Below, in pieces: positions 3,783 to 60,651 of a stretch of 64,000 nucleotides of DNA (its first letter is position 1; every line of letters starts with the position of its first letter). A program made the translations under genes and the position numbers. Source of the DNA: a virus (lineage: Duplodnaviria; Heunggongvirae; Uroviricota; Caudoviricetes); the IMG/VR virus record IMGVR_UViG_3300031088_000799; one strand, written 5' to 3'. The notes beneath the pieces are model-generated. The model was not told the origin of the DNA and did not search any database. It saw only the letters and a program-made list of their open reading frames with translations.

Positions 3783-3817
3783 TATAGCTTATCAAATATT
3801 AAAAGGATCTATAAACT

Positions 3818-5045: not shown

Positions 5046-5072
5046 AAAAAACCCGCATTAAGCGGGCTTTTT
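5046..5072 (-). terminator. intrinsic terminator downstream of tyrS (cccgcattaagcggg + T-run)
   Basis: Hairpin with flanking A/T runs immediately 3' of tyrS. Confidence 0.7.
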
Positions 5073-6332: not shown

Positions 6333-6547
6333 GAAAATTTAATTGTGTTTTGATTTGTAGCTGAATTTTAGTTAAATTGATGATGCCTCACAAGAGACAT
6401 TGAGTGGAGAAGGTCAATATCGAACAGTGAAAGATTTTTGAAAGTGGAATGTGGTTGAAGCGTTCATGTGTGTATTCCTTTTAAGACGTTTCGTTTAATA
6501 TGGCCATTCTAACAAAAAATGAAAAAGAAAGCAAGAAAAAATCTTGC

Positions 6548-15365: not shown

Positions 15366-15416
15366 AATTAAAATCCTTAAAATAAGGAAAAATTATACCA
15401 TATAATAGAAACTAAA

Positions 15417-16253: not shown

Positions 16254-17564
<1,311 letters not shown>

Positions 17565-17573
17565 CTAATTTAT

Positions 17574-18323: not shown

Positions 18324-18340
18324 CTTAACTTCTCCTATTG

Positions 18341-19102: not shown

Positions 19103-19120
19103 ATTACAACCTCATCAAAT

Positions 19121-19855: not shown

Positions 19856-19866
19856 AACAACCTCTA

Positions 19867-20676: not shown

Positions 20677-20717
20677 AAAATCCTCTTAAATAATGCCGAT
20701 TATAACATAAAAAGAGT

Positions 20718-21452: not shown

Positions 21453-21461
21453 AAACCATCC

Positions 21462-22277: not shown

Positions 22278-22881
22278 TCATTTCACAAAGAGTTAAATGG
22301 TCACGAATAGTTGTGGAAGGCAAAGCAGAAAATTCCTTCTTAGTCATTCTCAAATGCGTTGATTTTTTAACAATATAATGAATCGAACCCATTGTTTCTA
22401 CATAACATAGATTCAATAATTCATCCATAGTAATTATTTTATGGTATTCAATAAATGCTTCTGGACTACTATAAGCCATCCAAATTTCACCAGTTTTCAG
22501 ATTAAACCAGAGATCTTTTTTGTTCATCAAATGAACAGGCCAGCAAAGTCTTAGAAATACGCCATATTGAGTTGTTGGAGTGCCATTGATATTAGCAACG
22601 AACTCAATATCAAATCGATAAAAAAGAATAGAAGTTTTGGCGATTTTACCACTACTTGATTTACGGCGATAAGCAGGAGTATAAGCTATTCGTTCAAAAT
22701 TCTTAGACTGAGCTTTAATATAGCTAAAAGTAGGCTCAAAACCATTTTCTATTAAACGATTCATAAATTTATCAACCGAAAAACCATCATCAATAAAAGC
22801 ACCCAATTCAACGCTTTTAGAAAAAGCAGCCTGAATAAATGTTTTTACCTGTGTATAGTCAAATAAATTTAAGTCTTGCAT
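22267..22881 (-). CDS. Ct-motif paralog family member (...RDHLTLCEMIEV)
   Basis: 204 aa. 11-nt overlap with the upstream gene. Confidence 0.55.
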   Translation of the reverse strand: MQDLNLFDYTQVKTFIQAAFSKSVELGAFIDDGFSVDKFMNRLIENGFEPTFSYIKAQSKNFERIAYTPAYRRKSSSGKIAKTSILFYRFDIEFVANINGTPTTQYGVFLRLCWPVHLMNKKDLWFNLKTGEIWMAYSSPEAFIEYHKIITMDELLNLCYVETMGSIHYIVKKSTHLRMTKKEFSALPSTTIRDHLTLCEMIEV

Positions 22882-23301: not shown

Positions 23302-25503
23302 ATGAGTATGTATATTAATCCTAAAACGATAAAAGAGCTAGAAACCTTATGCTTCATTAAATATAACCAATTTAACCATAATTACAATTATTACAATCAT
23401 CGCCATCAACATAACTACATAGATCATATGTTTTTTAATCATGGTGCTCGACATGAAGAAAAAAAATATAATTTGTTTAAAATAATAAATGAAAATGAGC
23501 TAAAAGAATGTCTGGGTATTAAATTTTTAATAATGGACCCCTCTATTATTGAGTGTCACAAAGAAAATTTATTTCATGATGAAAATTTCTATGATAATGG
23601 ACATGGTGGGCGTTCCAGACCAACTATGATGAATCATTTTAGAAAATTTATAGGTGCAACAATAAATGATAATGATTTTGAATCAGAAGTCATGAAAATA
23701 GAAGAATCTATACAAATCCTTTCGAATAAGATGTCTCAGGTTGCTTTTGTTAAGGATACATTAGACTACACAGCCCTTATCAATGAATGGAAATCTTTTG
23801 CACAGCACCATAAAATCAATCTAGATTCTGAATTTAAAGAGATTTTAGATTCCATCGAAAATGATAAACTCAATAATCAAGAATGGTCAGATTTAAAAAA
23901 TAAATTCATAGAATTGCAAGAGATGACATTTGATCTTGTCAGGAACGCTCAGCGTTTCATAAGACTTTTTTACGATAATAATTTTAAACATAAATTTGGT
24001 GAAAATAAATTTTATGAAACAATGCAAAGAGATTCCGATTTCGAAAAAATTAATATCGAATTTAATCAAAAAATTGAAGAATTACAACTACTACCGAAAA
24101 TGGAAAGGATCAAAAAAGAAATCAGAGAATTTCAGGTATTAATAAATGAGAAATTAAAAGAATTTAATACTGAAATCAGTTATCTAACTACTAATGTCAT
24201 TAGTAAAAATAACATCCTGTTATTAGCTGCTATTGAAAAGGCTTATATTATTATGAAAGATAAAATCGATGAGCAAATGAAAGATTTCGGGTACCGAAAT
24301 ATGGCCATCGATTTTTTGAATAAATTGAGCCAAAAAGATTATAGCGAGCAAAGAATTAGTAATTATTTGGAAGAAAATAAAAAAAATATAATGTTGATAG
24401 CAGACAATTTTACATTCGAATCAACTAAATATAAGAAAATAGTTATTTTTACTGATGAGAGCTGTGCTGTATTAATTGAAGGACAAGAAAAAATCGAATG
24501 GTTTATGAATATACAGTCACTAAACAAAATTGTCAAAACTGCAATGATTGTTTATCTGAAAAACGTATTAAGAAAAAATCCTACGATTGCTAAGGTAATG
24601 AGTTCTCAATTTAATCAACGTGTTGAAAGAGAAAGCCAAGATACTCTTTATAAATATTACTCTACTCCACTACATTACGATAAATTATTATTATGTATCA
24701 ATACCTACTTTAAAAATGAGAATATTTTAAAGTCTGAAAAGTTTAATTTTATTGAAGCAATAGAAAAATCAACAGCTTATGAAAAACTGGACGATAAAAT
24801 GAATAAAGTTATTCGTGAACATAATATTAGAAAGTATGCTGAAAGCATTGTAAGCAATAAATATAAACACCTCTATAATGCTCAAAGCTACAAACTATTT
24901 AAAGAACTTTATGACTTGAAAATTGATACAAAGGTTATTCAAGAAATGTTAGGTAAAAAACTGGCTGCTGTTGAGTCTGAAACGATGTTTAATGACAACA
25001 TTAAAAATTTAATAAATAGTTTTAACGATTTTAATATGGATGCGATTAAGAAAAAAGCTGAATCAGTAAATGCTAAAATAATTTCAGATACTGATGATAT
25101 GCTTATTTTGGAAATTAGCAATTATACGCAATCAAAAAAACTAGGAAGTGGTTCATGGTGCATCACTCGAAATAAGGCTTATTTTGATCAATACACCGAA
25201 CAAGGAGCTAAGCAGTATTTTATTTATGATTTCAAACAGTCTTCAAAGAATACTAAATCTCTAATAGGTATCACTTTAGCAAAAACACTGAAAGTTAAAG
25301 CAGCTCATACTAAAAGTGACGCTCAACTAAAGGACAATAAAGTGGTAGAATATTTGACTTTAAAGGTGAAAGCAATTGAAGATGCTAAAAAAACAAAGAT
25401 GAAAATACCAGCAGATGGTATTAAGAAATCAAAAAAAACCAGCGACACCAACAGCAAAAACGTTAATGATGTAAACCAAAATGGAATGATTATTGGATTT
25501 TAA
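23302..25503 (+). CDS. large hypothetical protein; C-terminal ~200 aa paralogous to the ORF at 7761-9662
   Basis: 733 aa. N-terminus is His/Asn/Tyr-rich low complexity. C-terminal block ...SNKYKHLYN...LYDLKI...LGKK...KLGSGSWCITRNK...QYFIYDF.... Confidence 0.6.
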   Translation: MSMYINPKTIKELETLCFIKYNQFNHNYNYYNHRHQHNYIDHMFFNHGARHEEKKYNLFKIINENELKECLGIKFLIMDPSIIECHKENLFHDENFYDNGHGGRSRPTMMNHFRKFIGATINDNDFESEVMKIEESIQILSNKMSQVAFVKDTLDYTALINEWKSFAQHHKINLDSEFKEILDSIENDKLNNQEWSDLKNKFIELQEMTFDLVRNAQRFIRLFYDNNFKHKFGENKFYETMQRDSDFEKINIEFNQKIEELQLLPKMERIKKEIREFQVLINEKLKEFNTEISYLTTNVISKNNILLLAAIEKAYIIMKDKIDEQMKDFGYRNMAIDFLNKLSQKDYSEQRISNYLEENKKNIMLIADNFTFESTKYKKIVIFTDESCAVLIEGQEKIEWFMNIQSLNKIVKTAMIVYLKNVLRKNPTIAKVMSSQFNQRVERESQDTLYKYYSTPLHYDKLLLCINTYFKNENILKSEKFNFIEAIEKSTAYEKLDDKMNKVIREHNIRKYAESIVSNKYKHLYNAQSYKLFKELYDLKIDTKVIQEMLGKKLAAVESETMFNDNIKNLINSFNDFNMDAIKKKAESVNAKIISDTDDMLILEISNYTQSKKLGSGSWCITRNKAYFDQYTEQGAKQYFIYDFKQSSKNTKSLIGITLAKTLKVKAAHTKSDAQLKDNKVVEYLTLKVKAIEDAKKTKMKIPADGIKKSKKTSDTNSKNVNDVNQNGMIIGF

Positions 25504-27505: not shown

Positions 27506-27915
27506 TTATTTTCCATGCCATAGATAACAAGGTTTAATCGCACAAATAGCATAGTGATTACTGCCAACATGTCCCCAGTCTTCGACATAAACTCGCCAAC
27601 CGAGGCTATTATCGCCATCATGATCACAATCACCTTCCCAACGCTCATTCAGTTCAATAAGTTTTGCATCCCTTCCTTGTAACCATGTTTTCGCAAAATC
27701 ATAGGCTTCTGCCGCATAAATAGGCTCAGGAAAAGCAACAGCATCTTTTGTCAAAGACCAGAGGAATACCAATCCTTTATTTGGCAGGACTACATATCCT
27801 TTTGCAGTTGCACCATCATCGTTATAACTGTCTAAACGGAATGCTAAATTAATAGCCATTTCCAGATGTTCATCTTTTGCACCATTGACATTAAAAATAC
27901 GGTTATCAAATCCCA
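27506..27915 (-). CDS. hypothetical protein (136 aa; start at MGFDNRIF with SD GAGGA)
   Basis: The ORF-track start at 27976 is probably an extension. The internal ATG at 27915 has a good SD. Confidence 0.45.
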
Positions 27916-27972
27916 TTACTAAATCCTCTAAAAATAGGTGAACATTGTATAACAAAAGGAAAAAATGGTCAA

Positions 27973-28788
27973 TCAAATAATATGCATTGATAATAAATCC
28001 AAGAAACGAGATTTTACATCATTGTCTAATGTCTGAAAAGATTCAACAGTTTCACCCAACTCTTTTTCCAGCATTAAACAAACCTCTTTATCAAAAAAAG
28101 CCTCAATCGCTGATTTAATATCAACACAAATGCGATCAGCCGTATTATTTCTTAAAGTAATGCATATTGATTTACGACAATTAACAGGAATATACATGTT
28201 ATATTTAAAATCAATAACTCCATCAATATAAACTAAATTGAAGTGGACTTTAAAAAAAGGTGAATAAAGATTATTTGCCATGTTTTCATATAAGACAAAA
28301 ATAGGTTTACTGTAATTGGTGGAGAGCGTATGTTCTTTGCAATAAACTATATCACCATCCTTGAATTGATTGTTAACAAATTCAATAGGATCTTGAAAAT
28401 TATAATAATTATCAAAGAACCGATATTGAACGCCTAAATCTGCATAAATTTTGTTAACTTTTGCAAGTAAATCAATATCTAAAAGACTTTTAAAAGACTC
28501 ATTGTAATCTAATATTTTATCATTTTTGGACATATGTATATTAAGCATTTCATTGCCTAAAAGATCAAAAATAAACGTAAATAGCATTCCATCAACACTA
28601 GAAGCTGTCGTAATCACCTTATGACTTTTTGCTTTAAAAATAATACTCGCCACCATAGGACTTGCGGGCGATAACTTACATTCTTCTTCATGAGTTTCTT
28701 CTTGAATAGAAATAAATTCAAGATTCTTTCTTGAAAGAAATGACATCATTGATTGTTTAAAGTCTTCGAACTTAATAGATTCACTCAT
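27973..28788 (-). CDS. Ct-motif paralog family member (...KSRFLDLLSMHII)
   Basis: 271 aa. Confidence 0.55.
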   Translation of the reverse strand: MSESIKFEDFKQSMMSFLSRKNLEFISIQEETHEEECKLSPASPMVASIIFKAKSHKVITTASSVDGMLFTFIFDLLGNEMLNIHMSKNDKILDYNESFKSLLDIDLLAKVNKIYADLGVQYRFFDNYYNFQDPIEFVNNQFKDGDIVYCKEHTLSTNYSKPIFVLYENMANNLYSPFFKVHFNLVYIDGVIDFKYNMYIPVNCRKSICITLRNNTADRICVDIKSAIEAFFDKEVCLMLEKELGETVESFQTLDNDVKSRFLDLLSMHII

Positions 28789-29564
28789 ATCATTTTCATC
28801 TCGGCTAATGTAATGTATCTTGTTAAATCATCTGAATCTTTTGACAATTCATTTTTATCCAGCTTAAGCAATTTCATTAAAATGGTACGTAAACGACGAA
28901 AAGCATAACGTTTCATGTGGTTATATAATTGATCTTCATTAACCAATTTATAATTTTTTCGAGAACGACCTATAGAATCTTTGGTTGAAATGGTACTAAT
29001 TCGCATTTCTAGATCACCATTAATAGGTTTGGTCAACTCCAATCTAACAACATGCTTAAAATAAACAATAAAATCAATGTTAACTAATAAGGTAGGTCTT
29101 TCTTTAAAATTAAAATGGCTACTACAAAATATTTTTTGATTATCCTTGATGTAATCTTGTCTATAAAAAGAAGGTCTATCATAATTGTTTAATGTTGTCA
29201 GGTCAACAGAAATATGAGACTCTTCTATATTTGGAAACTGATTTAAGCTTTTTTCGTATGAAATATAATCAAATAAATGATATTTATCAAAAATTTTAGC
29301 AACATTTGAAATCATACTAATGACATAATTCAATTGTAATCCAAAGTAATTATAAAAATGTTCCATCTCTGGTTTATTAGCTCTAATATAAAAACTATCT
29401 TTATTTGCATTACAAAAAAAACGGTTATTCGGAGCATCATAATGACGATAACGAGGTAACAAATCACTCAGATGATGTTCATGGGCAAATGGCATCACAG
29501 ATGACAAATGCTTTTGAAATGCTACAACATTATTAACAGTTTGTTCAGTGGGTATGTTTTTCAT
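28785..29564 (-). CDS. Ct-motif paralog family member (...DLTRYITLAEMKMI)
   Basis: 259 aa. Confidence 0.6.
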   Translation of the reverse strand: MKNIPTEQTVNNVVAFQKHLSSVMPFAHEHHLSDLLPRYRHYDAPNNRFFCNANKDSFYIRANKPEMEHFYNYFGLQLNYVISMISNVAKIFDKYHLFDYISYEKSLNQFPNIEESHISVDLTTLNNYDRPSFYRQDYIKDNQKIFCSSHFNFKERPTLLVNIDFIVYFKHVVRLELTKPINGDLEMRISTISTKDSIGRSRKNYKLVNEDQLYNHMKRYAFRRLRTILMKLLKLDKNELSKDSDDLTRYITLAEMKMI

Positions 29565-29572
29565 ATATAATC

Positions 29573-30280
29573 CTAAATACTATCCATAGCCAATAGTGTC
29601 ATAAATCGGCCAATATCTTCAAATTCAGCTTCCTGAATATCTTTCTTTGTAAACGTCTTAATTCGCTTAGTGGTTAACAAACAGATGATTCGTTGACGAA
29701 TAGCTTTTTTAATAATGTTATCAACTTCTTCCATATTGAAGCCTGTACTGATTGGAACCAAAAAACGTTCCTTACGAGCCAATGGCAATTCAACAAGAAT
29801 ATTAGGTTCAAAAATATCACCTGTCACATTCACCTGCATTGAAACTCTAACAGTTGGGTAAACTTCATAATATTTTCTAACAGTATAAATAGTTTCCTTA
29901 TTAGCAATAACATTTCTATCCTTCAAAGGAATAATCATATCTAGAAAACGATTATCTGAGCGAAAGTTTTCAATATCAAATGTTGGCATATTAGCCACAG
30001 TGGTAGTTAACTCTGTATTGTTCATATGTTCCATGTATCGATCTATGATTTGTCGAATACAACTCAAATCTAAATAGAATAGAGAATAAATTTCTTTAAC
30101 CATATCAAGTGGTAACGAAGTAATGTCAACATTAAATTTATTTTTACACAACTTATTTAAAATAATATAATGTTGATAACTATCTAATTCAAAAGGAAAT
30201 TTCTGAATTGAAGATCTATTATCATCAAATAATTCAAAATCTTTGATATATTGATAAATGCGTTCTTTAAAGTCTTTCAT
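29573..30280 (-). CDS. Ct-motif paralog family member (...DIGRFMTLLAMDSI)
   Basis: 235 aa. Confidence 0.6.
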   Translation of the reverse strand: MKDFKERIYQYIKDFELFDDNRSSIQKFPFELDSYQHYIILNKLCKNKFNVDITSLPLDMVKEIYSLFYLDLSCIRQIIDRYMEHMNNTELTTTVANMPTFDIENFRSDNRFLDMIIPLKDRNVIANKETIYTVRKYYEVYPTVRVSMQVNVTGDIFEPNILVELPLARKERFLVPISTGFNMEEVDNIIKKAIRQRIICLLTTKRIKTFTKKDIQEAEFEDIGRFMTLLAMDSI

Positions 30281-31020
30281 TAAATTTTATCCATGCTGAT
30301 AACGGTTAAGTATTGTTTCAAGGTTTCTTCATCAAAAGTAATCACATCAGAGCATTCATCAGGATAACGATCAATCAGAAAAGCTTTGAATTCACTCATT
30401 ACACCTAATTTAACAACTTGTTCAGCTACTGAATACAAATTATCATTGCCTAGAATTACTGAAAAATAGCCTTCTTCTGATAATGGGAATGTTAATTTTG
30501 CTCGCGGCTCGATGACTCCATTTTGATAATACAAAAATAATTGAATAAAAATACGTGAATCTCGTAAGTTCAAGCCGCCACTAAATTCTTTTGAATAGTA
30601 ATTTGCACCAGAAGCAATTCCAAAAAATGAGTCATACTTTGCTGCAAATTCTTCACAAAAATTAGCTTTAACATAAAAATGATTATAAGTATGCAATTTA
30701 AATTCACGCATACCTTCCATGTAAGATTTGCAAATGCTTTCTACTTTTTCAAAATCGAAGCCTAATTTTTTATAAATTTCACGCTCTACCTGTGAAAATT
30801 TACCAGAGAATACATAAATGACAGAATAATCTTTAAAAAAATTATTATCAACATTCAAGGAAGTAAAATGGTCTAACTCTGACCATGTAGATTTAAATTT
30901 TTTCAATTTTAAAGTTGTTGGATGCAGACCTCTAAATAGTAACTCATCATTATCGAAAGCAAATGCATTCAATGCAGAAATAATGTTATCTAATCCGCTG
31001 TTCTGTTCACTCATTTTCAA
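30280..31020 (-). CDS. Ct-motif paralog family member (...TLKQYLTVISMDKI)
   Basis: 246 aa. Confidence 0.6.
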   Translation of the reverse strand: MKMSEQNSGLDNIISALNAFAFDNDELLFRGLHPTTLKLKKFKSTWSELDHFTSLNVDNNFFKDYSVIYVFSGKFSQVEREIYKKLGFDFEKVESICKSYMEGMREFKLHTYNHFYVKANFCEEFAAKYDSFFGIASGANYYSKEFSGGLNLRDSRIFIQLFLYYQNGVIEPRAKLTFPLSEEGYFSVILGNDNLYSVAEQVVKLGVMSEFKAFLIDRYPDECSDVITFDEETLKQYLTVISMDKI

Positions 31021-37414: not shown

Positions 37415-37464
37415 TCACCACCTCAAAAAAAACCATACAGGATGTATGATTTAACAGAATATTG

Positions 37465-37539
37465 TTGAAGAGGAAGGATTTGAACCCCCGACATACCCGC
37501 CCAAAATGCAGGCTGCTCTACCCACTGAGCTACCCTTCA
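37465..37539 (-). tRNA. tRNA gene, anticodon probably UUU (Lys), with non-canonical spacing
   Basis: Canonical D-arm GCTCAGTGGGTAGAGC and T-arm GGGGGTTCAAATCCTTC. Acceptor stem TGAAGGG/CTCTTCA. 2 nt between the D and anticodon stems, 6-nt variable loop. No encoded CCA. Confidence 0.6.
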
Positions 37540-37587
37540 AACACTTTAAAAAACAATAGAGCAACTAAGTTACTCTATTTTTCAAAT

Positions 37588-37664
37588 TGGTCGGAGTGGC
37601 AAGATTCGAACTTGCGGCATCTTGCTCCCAAAGCAAGCGGTCTACCGGGCTGACCTACACTCCG
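37588..37664 (-). tRNA. tRNA-Pro (anticodon TGG) with encoded CCA
   Basis: Perfect cloverleaf: acceptor CGGAGTG/CACTCCG, D GGTC/GACC, anticodon stem CTTGC/GCAAG, loop TTTGGGA, T-arm GCAAGTTCGAATCTTGC, 3' ACCA. Confidence 0.9.
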
Positions 37665-41175: not shown

Positions 41176-42270
41176 ATGGGTGGTAATGCACTGGCTCTAG
41201 CCGTAGTAAACGGCAAACCTGAACGAGTAGGTGTTCAATCTAAACGCCTACATAAAAAAGATTTTGATAACTTGACTGCCCAAGTAGTTAAAGTACTGAA
41301 CATCGCTATTCAAAAAGCTAATAGTCTTGGTGCTAGCATTGTTGATGCTCCACATGAAGTAAAAGCTTATCGTCAAAAAGAAACCTTTGGCGATCTTGAC
41401 CTATTGGTAGATGGTGAACTATTCCAATTTGTATCATATGATGAAATCATGGAAATGCTGCGTGTTGAATTCAATCATACAGGACCACTTCCTTACAAAC
41501 CAAAAGACAAAAATGATATGGTAATGAGTATTGGTTTGCCTTCCGACGAATCCAATGTGTATTTTCAATTGGACTTGATTGCCTCCAATCGAGATTACTA
41601 TAACTTCCAATCTTCTTATTTGAACTGGAATGATTTAGGCAACTTGGTTGGTGTAGTGGCCAGCTCTAATGGGTTCCTTAAATATGGTCATGATGGTCTA
41701 AGATATCTATTCAGAGATGGTGATAACCTCTTTGAAAGTATCGTATTAACCAATGATTGGAACAAAGCCTTGGATTTCTTTGGTTATTCAAAAGAGCGTT
41801 ATTATGCTGGTTTTGATAACCTGTTGGAAATCTATGAGTATGCAGCATCTAGTCGGTATTTCAGTCCAAGCCTGTATGCTTTTGAGAATCGTAACCATAC
41901 ACAGAGGACTCGTGACCGTAAACGTCCAACCTATAATGGTTTCTTAACTTGGATTGAAGAACAAGATGCGGTGGGTTATTTCAACAGTAAAACACCCATG
42001 AACAGTGAAAAATGGAAAGAAAGGGTCTATGAATTCTTCCCAGAGTTTAAAAAAGTGGAAAAAGAGACTTGGAATAAACTGGAACGTAGAAAGCTGTTCA
42101 AAGAATATTTCAATGGCACAAGATTATTAAAGTTCAAGACAGAACTGAAAAATAAAGAAATTAGTGATTATTTGAAAATACTTGAAAAAAGCGTTCCTAA
42201 TATTGAAGATTTCGTACTTCAAAACAAAGAAAATGCAATGGAAATGTTGGTAAAAATGAAAGAGTGCTGA
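41176..42270 (+). CDS. putative Pol-beta-superfamily nucleotidyltransferase
   Basis: TFGDLDLLVDG resembles the Pol-beta GDxDxL catalytic diad. A possible third acidic residue at FQLDLIA lies about 55 aa later. By-eye only. Confidence 0.35.
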   Translation: MGGNALALAVVNGKPERVGVQSKRLHKKDFDNLTAQVVKVLNIAIQKANSLGASIVDAPHEVKAYRQKETFGDLDLLVDGELFQFVSYDEIMEMLRVEFNHTGPLPYKPKDKNDMVMSIGLPSDESNVYFQLDLIASNRDYYNFQSSYLNWNDLGNLVGVVASSNGFLKYGHDGLRYLFRDGDNLFESIVLTNDWNKALDFFGYSKERYYAGFDNLLEIYEYAASSRYFSPSLYAFENRNHTQRTRDRKRPTYNGFLTWIEEQDAVGYFNSKTPMNSEKWKERVYEFFPEFKKVEKETWNKLERRKLFKEYFNGTRLLKFKTELKNKEISDYLKILEKSVPNIEDFVLQNKENAMEMLVKMKEC

Positions 42271-42301: not shown

Positions 42302-43060
42302 ATGTTCAAAATATTAATGCCACCAGAAAATTATCACGATAACATTCAACATAAATTTTTATCTATAGATACAGAAGATAACGACTGTAAAAGTTTGTTT
42401 AAAGCTATCAGTAGAAACATGAAGCATTATTTTTCTATGCATTTAAATACGATTGAAAAAAATCATGAATCTTATCGAATCATAGGGGATAGATGGGCGG
42501 ATATGAATGTAGGTGCCGCCCCTAAGAAAGATGAGTGTATTGAAATTTCTGATGTAAAGAATAACAATTCGTATATCTATAAAAATTTTATAGAAAATCT
42601 TATGCGTAAAGCTCATGATAGAATGAACTTACCATTTCTTAACTACATCCCTGAAAAACATAAGAAAGCAGAATTTGTATTTTCAGACTTCTATAATGAT
42701 AAAAAAATAAGAGTTACATACTATACATCACCTGTTATGTTGACTATGTGCTTTAACAAAGACAGCTTAACAATTGTATATTTAATGAACTATGATACTC
42801 AAAAAATGATGCTAGAGATTCAATTGGATCATAATAAAAGTATTATTTCAACCGAAGTTTACTTTAATGATGCCCGCTCAAATGAAACCGAAATGATTTC
42901 ACTTAATACAAAACAATTAGACTGCTTAATCATACTCAGTCACTATACAGATAATGAAGAAATTGATTTCAATATAGAGCAATATGTAGATGCTATTTTA
43001 GAAGAAAATTATGATGTTTTTTTTAATTATGTGAAACTTAAAGAAATGATATATATTTAA
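42302..43060 (+). CDS. Ct-motif paralog family member on plus strand (...FNYVKLKEMIYI)
   Basis: 252 aa. Confidence 0.5.
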   Translation: MFKILMPPENYHDNIQHKFLSIDTEDNDCKSLFKAISRNMKHYFSMHLNTIEKNHESYRIIGDRWADMNVGAAPKKDECIEISDVKNNNSYIYKNFIENLMRKAHDRMNLPFLNYIPEKHKKAEFVFSDFYNDKKIRVTYYTSPVMLTMCFNKDSLTIVYLMNYDTQKMMLEIQLDHNKSIISTEVYFNDARSNETEMISLNTKQLDCLIILSHYTDNEEIDFNIEQYVDAILEENYDVFFNYVKLKEMIYI

Positions 43061-43081: not shown

Positions 43082-43110
43082 TTGACATTTTTGAAAATAA
43101 AGATCACAAT
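43082..43110 (+). promoter_or_regulatory. sigma70-like promoter of the thr-leader/thrS unit (TTGACA, 17-nt spacer, CACAAT)
   Basis: TTGACA at 43082-43087. -10-like hexamer 17 nt downstream. Confidence 0.45.
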
Positions 43111-43133: not shown

Positions 43134-43211
43134 ATGAAATTATTTGCAGTAAACACAACGACTACAACAACTCAGTTTAATAGCTGGGATGGTCGATTGT
43201 TGCTGTCATAA
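43134..43211 (+). CDS. Thr-codon-rich leader peptide MKLFAVNTTTTTTQFNSWDGRLLLS (25 aa)
   Basis: SD GGAGA 9 nt upstream. Six consecutive Thr codons at 43155-43172. Followed by alternative antiterminator/terminator pairings. Confidence 0.55.
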   Translation: MKLFAVNTTTTTTQFNSWDGRLLLS

Positions 43212-43228
43212 AATAATCGGAACCATAG

Positions 43229-43257
43229 AACCCAGCTAAACGGCTGGGTTTTTTTAT
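43229..43257 (+). terminator. attenuator terminator (gaacccagc taaacg gctgggttt + T-run). Alternative antiterminator pairs 43181-43188 (tagctggg) with 43231-43238 (cccagcta).
   Basis: Strong hairpin plus T7 run 48 nt before the thrS start. An 8-bp competing stem lies upstream. Confidence 0.6.
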
Positions 43258-43304
43258 GCCTAAAATAAATGATTTACACAACGAAACTAACTAGGAGATA
43301 TAAA

Positions 43305-44483
43305 ATGAACGACAAATTAAACGAAGAAAAGAGATACATGCAAGTGGCCAAGGAAATGAATTTGTTCATGTTAGCAGAAAGTGCTGGAGTAGTGTACTGG
43401 AAACCAGAAGGTCTTAAATTGTATGAGAATTTAAAGTCTTTTATCCGTAAACACCATGAAGATGCTGGATACCTTGAAGTTAAAAGTCCATCTATTGTGG
43501 TACCTAATCTATTTGAACAATCTGGACATATGGATAAGTATAAAGACAACATGTTTTTCCTTAACTCATCCGAATCCAGTAACTACGCTTTACGTCCAAT
43601 GAGCTGTCCTAACCATATCCTTATCTATCAATCTGAAAAAAGAAGCTATCGTGAACTTCCACTCCCTATTTTTGAATTTGGTGAAGTATTCCGTAATGAA
43701 GCATCAGGTGCTCTACAAGTTTTATTTAGACAAAGACAATTCTGCCAAGATGATAGCCATGTTTTTGTAAATGAAGAAAATTTAATCAACTCCGTTAACC
43801 AATATATTCAGATGAGCCAAAAGGCATATGAAGAATTGGGGTTTAAAAAGATTAAATATGCAATTGCCCTACGACCAGAAAAACGTTTTGGTGATGATAA
43901 CTTATGGGATAAAGCAGAAGAATCATTAAGAGAAGCCTGCAGAATGAATAATCTTGACTTTGTAGAGAACGAAAATGACGGTGCTTTTTATGGGCCTAAA
44001 CTAGAACTTCAAGTTGAAGATAAACTGGGTAGATCATGGCAGCTCGGTGTTATTCAATTGGATTATGTATTACCAGAACGTTTTGGTCTTGAATACATTG
44101 ACGCTGACAACAAACCTAAGCGTCCTATTATTTTACACCATGCGGTTTTAGGTTCACTTGAAAGAATGATTGGTATTTTGTTAGAATCCTTTGGAAAAGA
44201 AATACCTGATTTCTTACATCCAGTGAAATCAGTTGTTATTCCTGTATCTGAAAAATCTATGAACTATGCACAAGTTGTGCTGTCACATTTAGATAAGAAG
44301 TCATCAAAGTTGGATCAAAGTGCAGATTCATTAGGTAAAAAAATACGCTACTGGAAAGAACGTGGTGTTCCTGAAATTATTGTAGTAGGAGAAGCTGAAC
44401 AACAAAAATATGAGCAAGAAGGCATTATTAGTTTTGTAGTGAATCGTGGAAATGTAAAAGAGGTCAAAGAAATAAAAAAGTAA
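43305..44483 (+). CDS. thrS: threonyl-tRNA synthetase, catalytic + anticodon-binding domains only (N-terminal TGS/editing domains absent)
   Basis: FRNEASGALQVLFRQRQFCQDDSHVFV matches ThrRS motif 2/3. Start MNDKLNE has SD AGGAGA. The protein corresponds to E. coli ThrRS residues ~240-642. Confidence 0.8.
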   Translation: MNDKLNEEKRYMQVAKEMNLFMLAESAGVVYWKPEGLKLYENLKSFIRKHHEDAGYLEVKSPSIVVPNLFEQSGHMDKYKDNMFFLNSSESSNYALRPMSCPNHILIYQSEKRSYRELPLPIFEFGEVFRNEASGALQVLFRQRQFCQDDSHVFVNEENLINSVNQYIQMSQKAYEELGFKKIKYAIALRPEKRFGDDNLWDKAEESLREACRMNNLDFVENENDGAFYGPKLELQVEDKLGRSWQLGVIQLDYVLPERFGLEYIDADNKPKRPIILHHAVLGSLERMIGILLESFGKEIPDFLHPVKSVVIPVSEKSMNYAQVVLSHLDKKSSKLDQSADSLGKKIRYWKERGVPEIIVVGEAEQQKYEQEGIISFVVNRGNVKEVKEIKK

Positions 44484-44492
44484 TGTAATCAG

Positions 44493-44520
44493 AAAAAGAG
44501 GCTTCGGCCTCTTTCTTATT
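44493..44520 (+). terminator. intrinsic terminator agaggcttcggcctct + T-run
   Basis: GC stem with a tetraloop-like ttcg. Confidence 0.65.
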
Positions 44521-45136
44521 GATAAAACATAATAATAGCTCTTTTTTCATCATCTGTCATTTCATTAACAGGCTTATCAAGAACCTGTTTAAAATAATAA
44601 TGTCTAAAAGCTTCATTAATAATATTGATTTGCTCATTAATATTATTAAATTTTAGATAACTGAATTCAAAGCGAATAATGCCAGCAGGTGTTTTCATTG
44701 CCATATATGGCAATGCAATAGGCCGTGGATTATCAGGTCTGAGAAAAAATACATTACTAAAAAAGAAACTTTTAGTATCTAATGTCAGATTTTCTTTATC
44801 TCTGGTATGTTTTTCAATCAAAATGACATTTTCTAAACAAGCTAAAAATAGTTTACGTGATTGAATATGTTCCGCCATATTCATAACAATATTACTTTCA
44901 TTTTTAGCATTTTTATAAAATTTAAATGTATTTTGAAAAAATAAATCATTTTCATCCAGCATATGCTCATCCATATCAAAAAATGATTCACCAACAATAA
45001 TGAAATTATTTTCAGCTAAAGCATCGTCAAAAGAAATTGTATTTAAATGCCTGTATATTTCACCATCACAATGTGTATAAGTATATTTATTGTTATTTAA
45101 GTTTTCCCTTAAAAAACGTTCAAAATTTTTAATCAT
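44516..45136 (-). CDS. Ct-motif family member, sub-clade (...DDEKRAIIMFYQ)
   Basis: 206 aa. One of three tandem paralogs. Confidence 0.5.
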   Translation of the reverse strand: MIKNFERFLRENLNNNKYTYTHCDGEIYRHLNTISFDDALAENNFIIVGESFFDMDEHMLDENDLFFQNTFKFYKNAKNESNIVMNMAEHIQSRKLFLACLENVILIEKHTRDKENLTLDTKSFFFSNVFFLRPDNPRPIALPYMAMKTPAGIIRFEFSYLKFNNINEQINIINEAFRHYYFKQVLDKPVNEMTDDEKRAIIMFYQ

Positions 45137-45145
45137 AAAAAGCCC

Positions 45146-45808
45146 TCAATAATAATACATCTTAACGATTTGCTTTTCTGATTTAGTAAGCTTATCTGTT
45201 GCACCCTTTTTTTCAATAACTTTTGAATAGTATCTAATAAAAAATTGATTGTCAATATTATTTCTTGCTGTTTCAAAACTATCTTTATCATTTTTGACAA
45301 CAACAAAGCATTCTGGAAACTGTTGAAAAGCTTTAAATTTAAATATTATTTTTTGATATACTTGTTTTTTTAAAGAATCAAAAACATAGACGGGAAATAT
45401 TTCAAATTGTTCAAAATCATAATAACCAAGTAATAAACGATTAGGAATATCAGTATTTATTAGGCGTAAATGATTTAAAATTAATCGGAATGATTGTTTA
45501 GCATAGAGGTTATCAATATGGCCTAAATAGACTTTATTTTTAGATGGTTTTGTAGATAAAAACTTTTTAGAAATTTCAAATGAGCATTCATGCTCAGTAT
45601 CATGTTTAAAATAAAATAAACGACCAATGGGATAATACTGATCAAACCCATCACTCAGTTTTGGAGTTCCATCAGGATTAATTCGTTCTTGGACAATGCT
45701 ATAACCAGCCGCAATATGATACCGATAACAATGATTACTTGTATCATTAAGTAAATAATCATTAAAAAATTGAACGTATGAAAGCAATGAAAGATCACTT
45801 TGTTCCAT
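45146..45808 (-). CDS. Ct-motif family member, sub-clade (...SEKQIVKMYYY)
   Basis: 220 aa. Confidence 0.5.
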   Translation of the reverse strand: MEQSDLSLLSYVQFFNDYLLNDTSNHCYRYHIAAGYSIVQERINPDGTPKLSDGFDQYYPIGRLFYFKHDTEHECSFEISKKFLSTKPSKNKVYLGHIDNLYAKQSFRLILNHLRLINTDIPNRLLLGYYDFEQFEIFPVYVFDSLKKQVYQKIIFKFKAFQQFPECFVVVKNDKDSFETARNNIDNQFFIRYYSKVIEKKGATDKLTKSEKQIVKMYYY

Positions 45809-46491
45809 TAAAAGTAAACCATCTTGATAAGATCTTGTTCCTGCTTGTTAAAAAATTTACCACGCTCAATTGTTTTACGCTCAATAATACCATCATAGAA
45901 GCGTTGTTGAAATTCTTTCTCCATTTCATCCATTGCTATTAAAAATTTATGATCATCATTTAAGATGGTAACAGTAACGTCTGGAAAGCCTTTAATAGCT
46001 TTAAAGGTAATGTTTGCACATTGACTTACAATATGACGAACATAACTGTATCGATAAAAATATGTCACTTTTATTTCTTGTGTTTCAAAGTTTGACACTT
46101 TGTGTTTTCGCTGCATAGCACCCGCAATGTTAAGTAGTTTTAGATGTCTTTTCAATCGACTGAAAAATTCTTTTGCGTGAAAGTCATTCAAATAATCAAA
46201 TTTAAAAGAATCTGTATTTTTTATTAATTGAAATGAAATTTCCTTATCAACTTCATCATGATAAGGGCAGTAGCTACTCAATAGAGCAATACAAACATAT
46301 TCATAATATTGATTATGTTTACCAGTATACACATCAAATGCTGATTTTATAATTTTAGAGCCATTTCTTAAAGGAAAACGAACAACCCCAGAGCTTTGAC
46401 CTTCGTATAAACAATCGGAAGTATTGTATTTAGACGAAAAATATTCTGCAAGCCTATCTCGATTTTTATTGTCACTCTGATAATTATTCAT
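45808..46491 (-). CDS. Ct-motif family member, sub-clade (...QEQDLIKMVYF)
   Basis: 227 aa. Confidence 0.5.
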   Translation of the reverse strand: MNNYQSDNKNRDRLAEYFSSKYNTSDCLYEGQSSGVVRFPLRNGSKIIKSAFDVYTGKHNQYYEYVCIALLSSYCPYHDEVDKEISFQLIKNTDSFKFDYLNDFHAKEFFSRLKRHLKLLNIAGAMQRKHKVSNFETQEIKVTYFYRYSYVRHIVSQCANITFKAIKGFPDVTVTILNDDHKFLIAMDEMEKEFQQRFYDGIIERKTIERGKFFNKQEQDLIKMVYF

Positions 46492-46616: not shown

Positions 46617-47270
46617 TTAGTCTTTCTTACCCATAATTTCAAGGATTCGAAGGAACAAGTTAACAATGTCCATATACAAGATAGCTGCCGAGTCCACAGC
46701 GTTATCAACTGTTTTAGGCAAAGCTGCAGCTTTACCCCAATCATAACCAATATACCCACAGAAAATAGCAGCCACAATCCAATCCATAATAGGCAAGTCC
46801 ATTTTGAAAACAAATACCAAGACCAACTCAGCGATAATAGCAGCCAACAAGCCCCAGAACAAACCAGAAGCAATGCTTTCAAAGAACTTTGGATACGCAA
46901 CCCCCAATGCCATCATAATACAGGTAACAACCGTTGTAACTTGCATTGCATTGATTACAATATCTGGCGAATATTGAGAAGTTACAATATTAATGACCAG
47001 TCCAAAAGGAACTGCAACAAAGTTAAATCCAATAAAACTTACCACTGGATTTTCTGATTTGCTAAACAGGTATAGTCCAAAGAAACAACTTGCAAAATAG
47101 CCAACCAAGAAAACCCACATAGGCACAGCTAAAAGGCTTGATACTGGAATAGTTTTAACCATCATAATATTCATCAAAAAACCATACAACAGGACAGCAC
47201 CAATGATTAAATTATACATTCGAGCAGAAATAGTATTATCTGATGTGTAAGTAGTTCTTGCTGTTTTCAT
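46617..47270 (-). CDS. Bax-inhibitor-1/YccA (TMBIM) family membrane protein
   Basis: 7-TM profile. C-terminal signature GYDWGKAA...AILYMDIVNLFLRILEIMG is typical of the BI-1/YccA family. Confidence 0.75.
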   Translation of the reverse strand: MKTARTTYTSDNTISARMYNLIIGAVLLYGFLMNIMMVKTIPVSSLLAVPMWVFLVGYFASCFFGLYLFSKSENPVVSFIGFNFVAVPFGLVINIVTSQYSPDIVINAMQVTTVVTCIMMALGVAYPKFFESIASGLFWGLLAAIIAELVLVFVFKMDLPIMDWIVAAIFCGYIGYDWGKAAALPKTVDNAVDSAAILYMDIVNLFLRILEIMGKKD

Positions 47271-47339: not shown

Positions 47340-47897
47340 TTAAATACACACCATGCGAACTAAATCTCGCTCAGCTTCTGTCATAGTGCTAATAGGTTTA
47401 ATCAATTCTGCTGGCAATTCTTTAGCGAAAGAACTGGCATAATATTCTAAAATTTCTTGTTCAAATGATGCAATATCAGTATCTTTTGTTTCTAAAAGAG
47501 ACATATAATCATGACCATTGATAATTTCATCAAAATCAAAAGCATAAACTTTTTCAATTTTTCCATATACCGTAACAAAATGATAATCATAAGCTTTATA
47601 ACATTCTTGTCCTGATTGATTGAAAAGTTCATCATATGCTTTAATAAGATGACTCAATTGAGATTTAAAATGAAACTTTTCGGCAAGGTGTAACCCAAAT
47701 TTATGCCAAAGATTATGACGATAATCAAGACTGAAAGCATGAAACTCATTGCCAGTGTCAGAATACGCAATAGTTTGCTGCTGAATGAGGTTGGGTCTTT
47801 CTTTTTTGAAAGTTGATTTCTCAATACCATGAGCAACAAAGAAATCTTTAAGTTGGTCATAAATAATATTGTGTGAAAATGGATGCGTATCAATCAT
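47340..47897 (-). CDS. Ct-motif paralog family member (...MTEAERDLVRMVCI)
   Basis: 185 aa. Confidence 0.5.
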   Translation of the reverse strand: MIDTHPFSHNIIYDQLKDFFVAHGIEKSTFKKERPNLIQQQTIAYSDTGNEFHAFSLDYRHNLWHKFGLHLAEKFHFKSQLSHLIKAYDELFNQSGQECYKAYDYHFVTVYGKIEKVYAFDFDEIINGHDYMSLLETKDTDIASFEQEILEYYASSFAKELPAELIKPISTMTEAERDLVRMVCI

Positions 47898-58094: not shown

Positions 58095-58669
58095 ATGATT
58101 AAATCTCTTTCTATTGGTAAATCTGCTTCTTTTCTTGGCCTTTCTGTTGTTACCCTTCGTCGTTGGGAACGACTTGGTAAAATTAGTTCTTTTCGAACCC
58201 TTGGCAATCATCGAAGATTCTTCTTCGATGACTTGCTTAAACTTCACAATTCTAACAAATTGCATGTTGGTTATGCTAGAGTTTCTTCTCACGATCAAAA
58301 AAAAACTTAGAAACCCAAATCAAATTTTTAGATAAATATATTCAAAATGACAATAAGATTGTCATTTCTGATCTTGGCAGTGGATTAAATTTTAATAAAA
58401 AAGGTTTAATTTTTCTTCTTTCTTTAATTGTTTCTCGTAAAATTTATACCCTTTATCTCACTCACAAAGAACGTTTATTAAGATTTGGCTCGGATCTAAT
58501 CTTTAAATTATGCTCAACATTTGGCACAAATGTTGTCATAATTAACAGTTCTGAATCTAAATCTTTTGAAGTGACTTTAGCAGAAGATGTTATTGAGCTT
58601 ATGACTGTCTTTTCGGCTAAACTTTATGGTAAACGTTCTCATAAGAATAAAAAATCAATAACTACTTGA
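58095..58669 (+). pseudogene. tnpA: IS607-type serine recombinase (MerR-like HTH + resolvase catalytic domain), interrupted by a -1 frameshift at an A9 tract (58296-58304)
   Basis: Frame 1 ends ...VGYARVSSHDQKKT*. The frame continues as NLETQIKFLDKYI...KLYGKRSHKNKK if one A is added. Confidence 0.6.
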
Positions 58670-58722
58670 CTTTTAATAGTTTTTTATTTATTATTGTGGC
58701 ATTATTGAGTATTTATTTATCC

Positions 58723-60651
58723 ATGAAAAAGAAATCCAACATCAAAGAGTTGTTTGGTACTACATTAGATGATGATGTAGCATTGAACAACACCATCACT
58801 GTTCAGGCAAAGTTCAAACTTTGTCCTGAGCAGGATGTGATCTTGAACAAAATCATGGAACATCTTACTTACGCTAAACTCATGTACTTTAACTATCTCG
58901 TTTATTCAACTAAAATGAATAAATTCATGAAAGATAATGCTCTTTATATTACTAAAGAGATAAAAGTGAAAGATGAATTAACAGGTTTAACATTATCACA
59001 AAGCGTTACAACCCTTGAAACTTTTAAAGTGGCTTTTTGTCGTGTCTATGGTCTATCATCTCGCCAATTCAATTCTATTGATTTTCTCATTAAAGGTCTT
59101 ATTAAGGCTAATAAGACTTTAATGCAAGATAGATTAATAAACTTTAATGACCAACTTGATAGAAAATTAGCCAAACAGAAAAAACTTATTGGTGAGATTC
59201 ATCTTTTATCTATAAGTGATGCTTTTAAGACTAAGAAAGATACTGCTCTTTCTAGTCATAATAAAAATAAAATAGCTTTAATTAAGTTAAAAGAAGAAAT
59301 TGAAAGAAAACAAGCCGCTATTGTTCGGTTAGAACATAACATTAAAACAAACAAAGTGTCTGTTTGTTTTGGTGATCGAAAAATATTGAATCGGCTTTCT
59401 TCTTTATTCAATGATAGCAATTATGATCATGGAAAATACAAACATATCAGTAATGACGCTCGAAAAAGCTATCATACTGCATACAGAAAGCTCTGGCATG
59501 ATTCTCGGTTTAATCAATTTTTCTTATTGGGTTCAAAAGATGAAAACAATGGCAATGCTTCTTGTGTGTTTTCAAAACAGAGTGAAAGCCTTTATTCTGT
59601 TAAGATTTCAATTCCACAATGTGTTAGAGATGAACTGGGTTTATCTCAAAAGCATTTGGTGATTGACAATATTAATTTTAAACACAATGAAAAAGAAATC
59701 TTAAACAGTTTTGCTTTAAATGAACAAAGAAAACAAAAAGAAATTGAGTACACTCAAAAACTAAAAGACAAAGATCCATCATTATTTGATGATAAAGGCG
59801 AAGTTATAAGTAAAGCGACTTACTTGGAAGATGAAGGTGTTGCTATTTCATTTAGATTCATAAAAGACACTTTTGCCGATCCTAAAAGAGTTTCAAGCTC
59901 TTGGAGAATTCTTACTTCAATGGATGAAACCAAACATCAGAAAGCTATTGTGTCAAAAGCAACAGGTGTTATTGCTATTGATACTAATGTCGATCATTTT
60001 GCTGTTGCTGAACTGAATAGTCAAAGAAACCTAAAGAAAGCTTTCAACGTGCATTTTGGTTTCACTGATAGTGAACAGAATTCAAATAAAACGCTTCGCA
60101 AAGAAGCAATATTGAAATCAGCTAAAAAGATTATTAACTATGCAATAGAGACTAAAAAACCTATTGTAATCGAACGTTTAGATTTCAAAACTAAGCGAGC
60201 ATCATTAAAAGAAGAAAATACATTATTTGGTGATGCTGCCAAAAAGAAAAACCGTATACTGTCATCATTTGCATACTCATTGATGATAGAGACGATAAAG
60301 CAATTGGCCTATCGTAACGGCATAGCCGTTTACGAGGTCAATCCAGCCTTTACGTCTCAAATAGGTTGGTTAAAGTATGCAAAAAAATATGGTATATCAC
60401 GACATATGGCAGCAGCTTATGTAATCGGAAGAAGAACCTATGCCATAGAAGAATTGTTTGACCGGAATGAGCAAGTTATTGTAAAAAGCCAAATAAGAAC
60501 AATCCCTTTACTAGTAGATAGAGAAGATTGTAAAACTTATTTTGAGTACTGCAGTAAAAACTTGCGAAATTTCCTAAAAAGACAGGTTCATGAAAGCCGA
60601 GGAAAGTTGGACAGTACTCAGGTTATTAGTGGATCGGTAATAACTATTTAG
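58723..60651 (+). CDS. tnpB: TnpB/OrfB-family (IS605/IS607 accessory, RuvC-like) protein. Long variant without a CxxC zinc finger.
   Basis: N-terminal VQAKFKLCPEQDVILNKIMEHL..YAKLMYFNYLV (TnpB N-terminal motif). RuvC-I IAIDTNVDHF, RuvC-II KPIVIERLDFK. The distal motif reads RHMAAAYVIGRR. No Cys pairs near the C-terminus. Confidence 0.65.
   Translation: MKKKSNIKELFGTTLDDDVALNNTITVQAKFKLCPEQDVILNKIMEHLTYAKLMYFNYLVYSTKMNKFMKDNALYITKEIKVKDELTGLTLSQSVTTLETFKVAFCRVYGLSSRQFNSIDFLIKGLIKANKTLMQDRLINFNDQLDRKLAKQKKLIGEIHLLSISDAFKTKKDTALSSHNKNKIALIKLKEEIERKQAAIVRLEHNIKTNKVSVCFGDRKILNRLSSLFNDSNYDHGKYKHISNDARKSYHTAYRKLWHDSRFNQFFLLGSKDENNGNASCVFSKQSESLYSVKISIPQCVRDELGLSQKHLVIDNINFKHNEKEILNSFALNEQRKQKEIEYTQKLKDKDPSLFDDKGEVISKATYLEDEGVAISFRFIKDTFADPKRVSSSWRILTSMDETKHQKAIVSKATGVIAIDTNVDHFAVAELNSQRNLKKAFNVHFGFTDSEQNSNKTLRKEAILKSAKKIINYAIETKKPIVIERLDFKTKRASLKEENTLFGDAAKKKNRILSSFAYSLMIETIKQLAYRNGIAVYEVNPAFTSQIGWLKYAKKYGISRHMAAAYVIGRRTYAIEELFDRNEQVIVKSQIRTIPLLVDREDCKTYFEYCSKNLRNFLKRQVHESRGKLDSTQVISGSVITI

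Follow-up and report, generated by a model that had tools for sequence, protein, structure and literature searches.

The DNA analyzed here (hereafter, the window) is a stretch of 64,000 nucleotides (64 kb) from the IMG/VR record IMGVR_UViG_3300031088_000799, and the genome that it belongs to measures 257 kb or more. The window encodes a threonyl-tRNA synthetase (ThrRS) of 392 amino acids (aa), which is a ThrRS of the bacterial type reduced to the complete catalytic and anticodon-binding core. The gene is preceded by a promoter, a short leader open reading frame (ORF) with a run of threonine codons, and an intrinsic terminator, and is followed by a second terminator (Table 1); this arrangement was compared with that in nine related loci (L004, L017, L007, L009, L013, L014, L177, L178, and L179; together with the window, the ten family loci), which range from 22 to 61% in GC content, with protein identities down to 57%. 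The program-made ORF list gives a longer frame for the ThrRS gene (43269–44483, 404 aa); however, the true start is the ATG at 43305, because it follows an AGGAG Shine-Dalgarno site at a distance of 8 nt and because the closest homologs, P0001 and P0004 (both 392 aa), begin with the same methionine (MNDKLNEEKRY). More distant family members start a few residues further down, at MNEEKRY, and the alternative ATG at 43269 lies immediately after the TAA and the T-run of the terminator and has no ribosome-binding site.

Table 1 The threonyl-tRNA synthetase (ThrRS) cassette and other translation-related or neighboring features of the window
Feature	Position	Strand	Remarks
Sigma70-like promoter, TTGACA-17 nt-CACAAT	43082–43110	+	ends 23 nt before the leader ATG
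Leader peptide ORF, MKLFAVNTTTTTTQFNSWDGRLLLS and stop, 25 codons, own GGAG Shine-Dalgarno site	43134–43211	+	run of Thr codons
Predicted antiterminator	43182–43236	+	AGCUGGG-AUGG-UCGAUU (inside the leader ORF) pairs with AAUCGG-CCAU-CCCAGCU
Intrinsic terminator of the attenuator, 11-bp GC-rich stem AGAACCCAGCU / GGCUGGGUUUU, AAAC loop, seven T	43226–43254	+	-16.0 kcal/mol
Shine-Dalgarno site of the ThrRS gene, AGGAG	43293–43297	+	8 nt upstream of the ATG at 43305
ThrRS gene, N-terminally truncated, 392 aa	43305–44483	+	Pfam, TIGR00418, PDB alignment, AlphaFold2 model
Intrinsic terminator, AAAGAGGC-TTCG-GCCTCTTT	44495–44514	.	between the ThrRS gene and the convergent ORF 44516–45136; kept in L004
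Pol-beta-superfamily nucleotidyltransferase-like protein	41176–42270	+	about 1 kb upstream of the ThrRS cassette, with ORF 42302–43060 between
TyrRS, bacterial type	5058–6332	-	same window
SerRS	16254–17558	-	52% identical to serS of the 'Acinetobacter phage MD-2021a' record, the best match in the phage collection
Listed with the aminoacyl-tRNA synthetase and tRNA genes of the window	37464–37664	-	

The domain content of the protein was confirmed. The class II catalytic domain spans approximately residues 1–300 (Pfam tRNA-synt_2b at residues 88–295, E = 6e-43) and the anticodon-binding domain approximately residues 301–392 (HGTP_anticodon, PF03129, at residues 309–368, E = 3e-11, profile positions 2–66 of 94). 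The NCBIfam equivalog model TIGR00418 (thrS) is matched over profile positions 173–536 of 565 with 395.8 bits, against a cutoff of 383.65. In a phmmer search of the PDB, residues 9–367 align with residues 242–602 of Escherichia coli ThrRS (1qf6), and in the truncated construct that was crystallized, 1evk, the aligned part begins at residue 3; relative to the E. coli enzyme, the window protein lacks about 20 residues at the C-terminus. Neither TGS (PF02824) nor tRNA_SAD (PF07973) is matched by the protein, and these families and the trans-editing Pfam families have no match among the 73 window ORFs of at least 90 aa. A tblastn search with the 240 N-terminal residues of three full-length ThrRS (from E. 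coli, Sinorhizobium phage Phosso, and one IMG/VR contig) against the window and the nine related loci (about 250 kb) yielded a best E-value of 0.33, whereas the ThrRS core was detected in the same search in every one of the 10 loci with E-values of 1e-83 to 1e-92. The original prediction, made from the letters of the sequence, had described the product as the catalytic and anticodon-binding core of ThrRS that starts roughly where the catalytic domain starts and lacks the TGS and editing domains; the Pfam and TIGR00418 matches, the alignment with E. coli residues 242–602, and the AlphaFold2 model bear out this description, and instead of an in-frame exon that would restore the N-terminal domains, the upstream sequence contains the promoter, the leader, and the terminator.

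The active site is intact. The zinc ligands C101, H152, and H278 correspond to C334, H385, and H511 of E. coli, and the motif arginines R130 and R287 to R363 and R520. In a 14-sequence alignment, C334, H385, H511, R363, E365, R375, D383, Y462, K465, Q479, Q484, S517, R520, and E600 (E. coli numbering), as well as P296, are invariant, and motifs 1, 2, and 3 are all intact; among 54 family members, the zinc triad and the equivalents of R363 and R520 are still invariant. Both motif 2 and motif 3 were initially assigned to the segment FRNEASGALQVLFRQRQFCQDDSHVFV; this segment is present in the protein and both motifs are indeed preserved, but it spans motif 2 and the zinc ligand H385, whereas motif 3 is found elsewhere, as GSLERMIGILLE. 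Near the active site, the family has characteristic substitutions (CHRNE to VFRNE, WQCGT to WQLGV, and HGLMRVRGF to QVLFRQRQF). An AlphaFold2 model built on 54 family sequences (predicted local distance difference test score, pLDDT, 92.3; predicted template modeling score, pTM, 0.90) includes a complete anticodon-binding fold and, in a Foldseek comparison, superimposes on 1EVK with template modeling (TM) scores of 0.92/0.90 and a root-mean-square deviation of 1.8 A over 386 columns; the TM scores with yeast mitochondrial MST1 and Aeropyrum ThrRS-1 are 0.89 and 0.84, respectively. The protein is predicted to be catalytically active, that is, to attach threonine to tRNA-Thr. In ThrRS, the zinc site excludes valine but lets serine pass, and the N2 domain clears Ser-tRNA-Thr (PMC7373986); the absence of this domain, along with the behavior of the engineered E. 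coli deltaN enzyme, suggests that editing has been lost.

The truncation is natural and stable. A search of 5.8 billion clustered proteins delineated a family whose clusters number at least 120 and are 57–96% identical, and the 120 best clusters are all 376–421 aa long and contain the two core domains only. A clear gap separates this family from other ThrRS: at 50% clustering, identity is about 56% inside the family compared to at most 45% with every other full-length or near-full-length ThrRS. The window protein and that of L004 are 95% identical, with 64% of the synonymous sites differing (pS 0.64) and a ratio of nonsynonymous to synonymous substitution rates (dN/dS) of 0.027; for the other pairs with an estimable dS, dN/dS is 0.06–0.16. 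Because purifying selection is this strong, the ThrRS is a working protein and not a remnant. A tblastn search of the INPHARED phage set and the PLSDB plasmids produced best matches of 39–42% identity and no family member, so that the family is known from metagenomes only; the gene region and the surrounding 25 kb had no megablast match among 50,697 phage records. A scan of metagenomes retrieved mostly canonical thrS, with at least one family locus among the matches listed.

The region upstream of the ThrRS gene has the layout of a leader-peptide attenuator. The leader contains six consecutive threonine codons (ACA ACG ACT ACA ACA ACT, positions 43155–43172), and the leader segment AGCUGGGAUGGUCGAUU is predicted to pair with the 5' arm of the terminator, forming an antiterminator with the leader stop codon inside its loop. 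When modeled with a ribosome on Thr codons 1–4 and the 3' arm of the terminator not yet transcribed, this antiterminator has a thermodynamically predicted energy of -22.4 kcal/mol in the window; those of the other nine loci, predicted in the same manner at -14 to -33 kcal/mol, share its architecture and differ in sequence. Relative to shuffles, the folding of the complete 143-nt leader region has a z value of -4.2. The full cassette (promoter, Thr leader, antiterminator/terminator, and truncated ThrRS) is present in 10 of the 10 family loci: all leaders have 5–8 consecutive Thr codons, all promoters match the consensus at 9 or more of 12 positions with a spacer of 17 and are located 9–34 nt upstream of the leader ATG, and in each case a terminator lies between the leader and the ThrRS gene. 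The arms of the switch vary by locus yet remain complementary (AGCUGGG/CCCAGCU, CUGGGC/GCCCAG, UGCUGG/CCAGCA, and CCUCGGGC/GCCCGAGG). The upstream attenuator that was noticed in the original prediction is real and is kept in all these loci despite wholly changed sequence and GC content. The retention of the cassette pattern across the loci is the strongest evidence that the unit would sense charged tRNA-Thr; the same conservation argues that the ThrRS product acts on tRNA-Thr charging. The Rfam models detected two tRNAs only in the window, and neither a T-box nor a known thrS leader model was matched. The terminator downstream of the ThrRS gene closes a monocistronic unit; being located between convergent genes, it could act in both directions.

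A plausible mode of operation can be outlined. The cassette would be a self-contained unit transcribed by the sigma70 RNA polymerase of the host, with the leader translated during transcription. When charged tRNA-Thr is plentiful, the ribosome would reach the stop codon of the leader and cover the 5' arm of the antiterminator, so that the terminator would form and transcription would end short of the ThrRS gene. Under scarcity of charged tRNA-Thr, possibly owing to phage demand, decay or shut-off of the host enzyme, or threonine limitation, the ribosome would stall on the Thr codons, the antiterminator would form, RNA polymerase would read through, and the ThrRS would be made. By recharging tRNA-Thr, the enzyme would close a negative feedback loop. 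Without the N2 domain, clearing of Ser-tRNA-Thr in cis is not expected; fidelity would then be provided by the zinc site or by trans-editing by the host, or else would be relaxed. By analogy, this should be an on-demand, non-proofreading ThrRS, with its errors either tolerated in the course of infection or put right by the ThrRS of the host.

The genomic context points to a huge phage or a phage-like giant element as the probable carrier. The GC content of the window is 30.6%, and about 63 of the 73 ORFs have no Pfam match (about 10 have one). Apart from the three aminoacyl-tRNA synthetases (aaRS), the window encodes tRNA-Lys(UUU) and tRNA-Pro(UGG), an NAD-dependent ligase, and MazG- and NUDIX-type genes; in the related loci, genes for ArgRS, GluRS, or GatB lie 2–10 kb from the ThrRS gene, giving these regions the look of a translation-gene island. 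The protein encoded upstream of the cassette, resembling nucleotidyltransferases of the Pol-beta superfamily, is common to Pseudomonas phage pPa_SNUABM_DT01, Acinetobacter phage vB_AbaM_ME3, and the 636–735 kb LR7565xx huge phages, and its gene also adjoins the ThrRS gene in L004, L007, and L009; it may be an enzyme of the CCA-adding or tRNA-repair type. Two ORFan paralogs in the window (7761–9662 on the minus strand, 633 aa, and 23302–25503 on the plus strand, 733 aa) have a common C-terminal domain, GSxSWCI...YFIYDF, which two uncultured huge phages, LR756502 (642 kb) and LR745206 (635 kb), also encode. The flanks beyond the window contain genes for PNKP-like, R2K ATP-grasp, and nucleoside deoxyribosyltransferase proteins along with more ORFans, and a relative with 84% identity is located on the 437-kb IMG/VR UViG 3300031133_000383. 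A giant eukaryotic virus (Nucleocytoviricota), a candidate raised by the genome size, the GC content, the NAD-dependent ligase, and the HSP70 and ankyrin genes, was rejected because GGAG or GAGG precedes 29 of the 73 window ORFs (40%, compared to 1.9% of random positions, an approximately 20-fold enrichment), the Mimivirus promoter AAAATTGA precedes only 2 of the 73 ORFs (no enrichment), and sigma70 promoters and intrinsic terminators are conserved.

We consider it probable that the ThrRS of the window works, that its loss of the TGS and N2 domains is permanent, and that it serves as an auxiliary enzyme induced via the threonine attenuator and is carried by an uncultivated, ORFan-rich, huge-phage-like genome (about 30% GC). 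The regulated auxiliary ThrRS envisaged in the original prediction fits the conserved attenuator and a genome that resembles an ORFan-rich huge phage and not a recognizable bacterial chromosome; for a resistance-associated synthetase, another option named there, no support was found. Several observations pull in the opposite direction. The relatives L004, L007, and L009 reside, one copy each, on contigs of 1,851,360, 1,539,155, and 1,042,066 bp (JGI 3300028584 Ga0308423_1259934, 3300024308 Ga0247725_1000001, and 3300034072 Ga0310127_000002, respectively), and such sizes, 1.0–1.85 Mb, exceed those of almost every published phage genome, the one comparable claim in the literature searched being an approximately 1.03 Mb 'megabasephage' announced in the abstract of a 2022 bioRxiv preprint (10.1101/2022.07.03.498593). 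Some of these megabase relatives have OmpA, OprD, HSP70, RuvA, and GatB nearby. Among the window genes, none could be identified as a phage structural gene, the only such signal being a weak portal-like PHROG match (E = 7e-6); an S49 peptidase matches the head-maturation protease PHROG but adjoins a Band_7 gene. The very strong constraint on the protein is also compatible with an essential housekeeping gene. The anticodon-binding domain is divergent, with the Pfam match covering only profile positions 2–66 of 94, and therefore the tRNA specificity could differ. Finally, the proposed aminoacylation, serine mischarging, and lack of editing are all predictions from homology and from the engineered deltaN enzyme.

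The neighborhoods of L004, L007, and L009 are syntenic with the window, consist of about 85% ORFans, and have prokaryotic expression signals. Concatemers as the source of the contigs longer than 1 Mb were rejected because the ThrRS gene occurs once per contig; the megabase contigs represent phage-like genomes that equal or exceed the roughly 1.03 Mb 'megabasephage' of that abstract, an unknown kind of cell, or chimeric assemblies. The cellular option leads to a different explanation of the ThrRS itself: it could be the sole housekeeping ThrRS of an uncultivated, fast-evolving bacterium with a reduced, AT-rich genome of 1–2 Mb, perhaps intracellular, that has lost editing, as Mycoplasma in effect has, and the attenuator would represent the normal control of thrS. 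The single-copy status of the gene on the three contigs, a dN/dS of 0.03 at a near-saturated dS, which is typical of essential genes, the OmpA, OprD, HSP70, RuvA, GatB, and ankyrin proteins near the genes of the relatives, and the Shine-Dalgarno sites and sigma70 promoters throughout are all compatible with such a bacterium. However, about 85% of the ORFs have no Pfam match over roughly 100 kb of contiguous sequence, in which ribosomal and core metabolic genes were not found, and aaRS genes are much denser than in cells, with three in the 64 kb of the window and with ThrRS beside ArgRS or GluRS, both of which are encoded in the neighborhoods of the relatives. Furthermore, elements of 22% to 61% GC share this one cassette, a distribution that is easier to reconcile with a mobile gene than with one cellular lineage; IMG/VR classifies one relative as viral; and phage-type genes are present (the Pol-beta-like gene common to jumbo phages, PNKP, and R2K). 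The plasmid collection contains no family member, and neither does the phage collection. Hence, we regard the cellular explanation as unlikely, albeit worth keeping in view.

The main role of the protein could also be different from on-demand charging: it might be a decoy for the thrS operator or the tRNA-Thr of the host, an error-prone enzyme that inserts serine for threonine, or an inhibitor-insensitive bypass of an attack by the host or a competitor on ThrRS. E. coli ThrRS no longer functions as a regulator once its N-terminal region is deleted (Caillet 2003, as cited in PMC7373986), the E. coli deltaN-ThrRS being able to bind the operator but not to repress; the N-terminal loss recurs in several groups of huge-phage ThrRS, which suggests that the loss itself is selected; and the family-specific VFRNE, WQLGV, and QVLFRQRQF substitutions lie near the active site. 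However, every catalytic residue tested is invariant, whereas a pure RNA-binding decoy would not need them; with Thr codons as the control, a simple feedback loop requires a product that raises the level of Thr-tRNA-Thr; and the neighborhood has no sign of an inhibitor or toxin system, all of which renders such a role improbable. As for an artifact or pseudogene, that is, a full-length thrS shortened through a frameshift, misassembly, or a deletion of recent origin, the short length is the sole point in its favor, and it can be ruled out given that ENA, JGI, and Logan assemblies, which are independent, all contain the identical protein, the length is the same in more than 120 family clusters, the 220 nt upstream contain the conserved promoter, leader, and terminator, no N-terminal remnant exists in any frame, and dN/dS is 0.03.

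The preferred reading, a working auxiliary ThrRS under attenuator control, has several partial precedents. Closest in structure is the engineered E. coli deltaN-ThrRS (residues 242–642; 1EVK, 1EVL, 1FYF, and 1KOG), which has the same domain boundary, fold, zinc triad, and motifs 2 and 3; in contrast, the window protein is only 37–38% identical to it, is the product of a natural, stable gene, has a shorter, divergent C-terminus, and comes with its own attenuator. According to the summary of Dock-Bregeon et al. 2000 in PMC7373986, the deltaN enzyme charges tRNA-Thr and mischarges serine. Some archaea split the editing function of ThrRS into a separate protein, ThrRS-ed: the crenarchaeal Aeropyrum pernix ThrRS-1 (3A31) is, like the window protein, the product of a natural thrS without the N-terminal editing domain (PMC7373986), but in that system the DTD-like ThrRS-ed edits in trans, and no such protein was found in the window or the related loci. 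Yeast mitochondrial MST1 (3UGQ, 3UH0, 4EO4, and 4YYE) is another natural ThrRS that consists of the catalytic and anticodon-binding domains without the editing domain; it differs in being 31–32% identical, eukaryotic, and organellar, in serving a small proteome, and in lacking an attenuator. The T2 enzyme of Anabaena resembles the proposed system as a second ThrRS with impaired proofreading that is induced only on failure of the main enzyme, and its errors are rescued in trans by the accurate ThrRS; unlike the window protein, it retains a degenerate editing domain, is induced by zinc limitation and not through a Thr-codon attenuator, and is chromosomal (PMC4787780). Mycoplasma also tolerates degenerate ThrRS editing, whereas the N-terminus of E. 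coli ThrRS is needed for the repression of its own mRNA (PMC7373986).

With respect to regulation, the cassette resembles leader attenuators such as those of E. coli thrL-thrABC and pheM-pheST, where a short ORF with tandem regulatory codons is combined with mutually exclusive antiterminator and terminator hairpins; it differs in its phage-like genome, in the truncated ThrRS as the target, and in the 5–8 consecutive Thr codons without Ile. The pheM-pheST operon is the classical aaRS case of leader-peptide attenuation, whereas thrS is controlled by translational operator mimicry in E. coli and by T-boxes in Firmicutes. A thrL-thrS arrangement, with a two-Thr leader upstream of thrS, has been proposed in Streptomyces lividans (PMC8079986). 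The truncated enzyme, the long threonine run, and the phage-like genome make a new combination; we found nothing specific in the literature on phage ThrRS truncation or on megabase-sized phages carrying this family.

Truncated ThrRS are not limited to the present family. Huge phages carry up to 15 aaRS genes (PMC7162821), and among the 14 IMG/VR contigs of at least 200 kb that were surveyed and contain a ThrRS gene, 13 encode a ThrRS of 386–435 aa with its start at the DHRxIG motif, which corresponds to residue 242 of the E. coli enzyme; the sole full-length ThrRS of this survey comes from a 222-kb contig and has a T-box-like leader. The cultured Sinorhizobium phage Phosso also encodes a full-length ThrRS, of 640 aa. 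Among the best 150 representatives at 50% identity, about 25 are complete-looking N-truncated ThrRS, and in a rough neighbor-joining tree, which is indicative only, truncated ThrRS fall into at least three groups, with the present family alone on a long branch. The other huge-phage ThrRS (from LR756504.1 and from IMG/VR UViGs of 289–578 kb) resemble it in length and in the start at E. coli residue 242 but are only 36–44% identical to it and group elsewhere in that tree. In the 636-kb huge phage LR756504.1 (131305–138357, locus L012), a 386-aa N-truncated ThrRS is encoded at positions 2911–4330 of the locus; a tRNA-Thr(GGU) ends 1 nt before its start, tRNA-Asn and tRNA-Thr(UGU) follow, and an intrinsic terminator and a small Thr-containing ORF are located farther upstream. 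No clear case of a Thr-run leader was detected upstream of the other truncated phage ThrRS, with L020 and L066 offering weak candidates; as far as sampled, the Thr-leader attenuator appears to be confined to the present family. A broader interpretation, which we put forward as tentative, is that the loss of the TGS and editing domains is a general, selected trait of huge phages and that the attenuator of this clade, with ribosome-based sensing of a specific amino acid, would be the first of its kind described on a phage-borne aaRS gene, providing on-demand tRNA-Thr charging by a non-proofreading enzyme that escapes the autoregulation of host thrS; the 1.0–1.85 Mb contigs could then be phage-like genomes beyond the 'megabasephage' of about 1.03 Mb described in the bioRxiv abstract and more than twice the size of the 735-kb genome of PMC7162821.

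Elsewhere in the window, several gene groups deserve mention. Tandem arrays of ORFan paralogs (about 200–270 aa) occupy 12884–22881, 27506–31020, 44516–46491, and 47340–47897, all on the minus strand; the SerRS gene sits inside one of them, and the paralog group next to the ThrRS gene has a common C-terminal motif, ..E/D.R/K.I/V.M.Y/F. The region 9803–10699 (minus strand) with its neighbors and the region 46617–47270 (minus strand) encode proteins that are odd cargo for a phage: a membrane protease of the S49/NfeD type, a stomatin-like protein (Band_7), and a membrane protein of the Bax-inhibitor-1/YccA family. A 661-aa protein (58666–60651, plus strand) contains a TnpB/OrfB-type C-terminal region that is 30–32% identical to TnpB-family transposases of Thermus phages and may belong to an element of the IS200/IS605 type or to an RNA-guided nuclease element. 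The TyrRS gene is preceded (6333–6547, minus strand) by a 17-codon ORF, MNASTTFHFQKSFTVRY and stop, that ends in a Tyr codon and has no clear terminator after it; as a Tyr-type leader, this ORF is unconvincing and is either a leader of another kind or a chance occurrence. The SerRS gene has no space for a leader upstream.

ThrRS is the textbook 'double-sieve' case for the discrimination between threonine and serine. A large, conserved natural family that lacks the second sieve and retains a perfect active site raises the question of how much proofreading virus-driven translation needs, and the further question of whether trans-editing is borrowed from the host. The Thr-codon attenuator predicts that the phage ThrRS would be expressed when charged tRNA-Thr is scarce; in that case, classical feedback through ribosome sensing can also be built around the auxiliary translation genes of phage-like genomes. 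At about 1.4 kb, the compact cassette, comprising a promoter, a sensor, and a minimal synthetase, may serve as a part in synthetic biology, and the family provides a convenient marker for an uncharacterized group of very large, ORFan-rich genomes.

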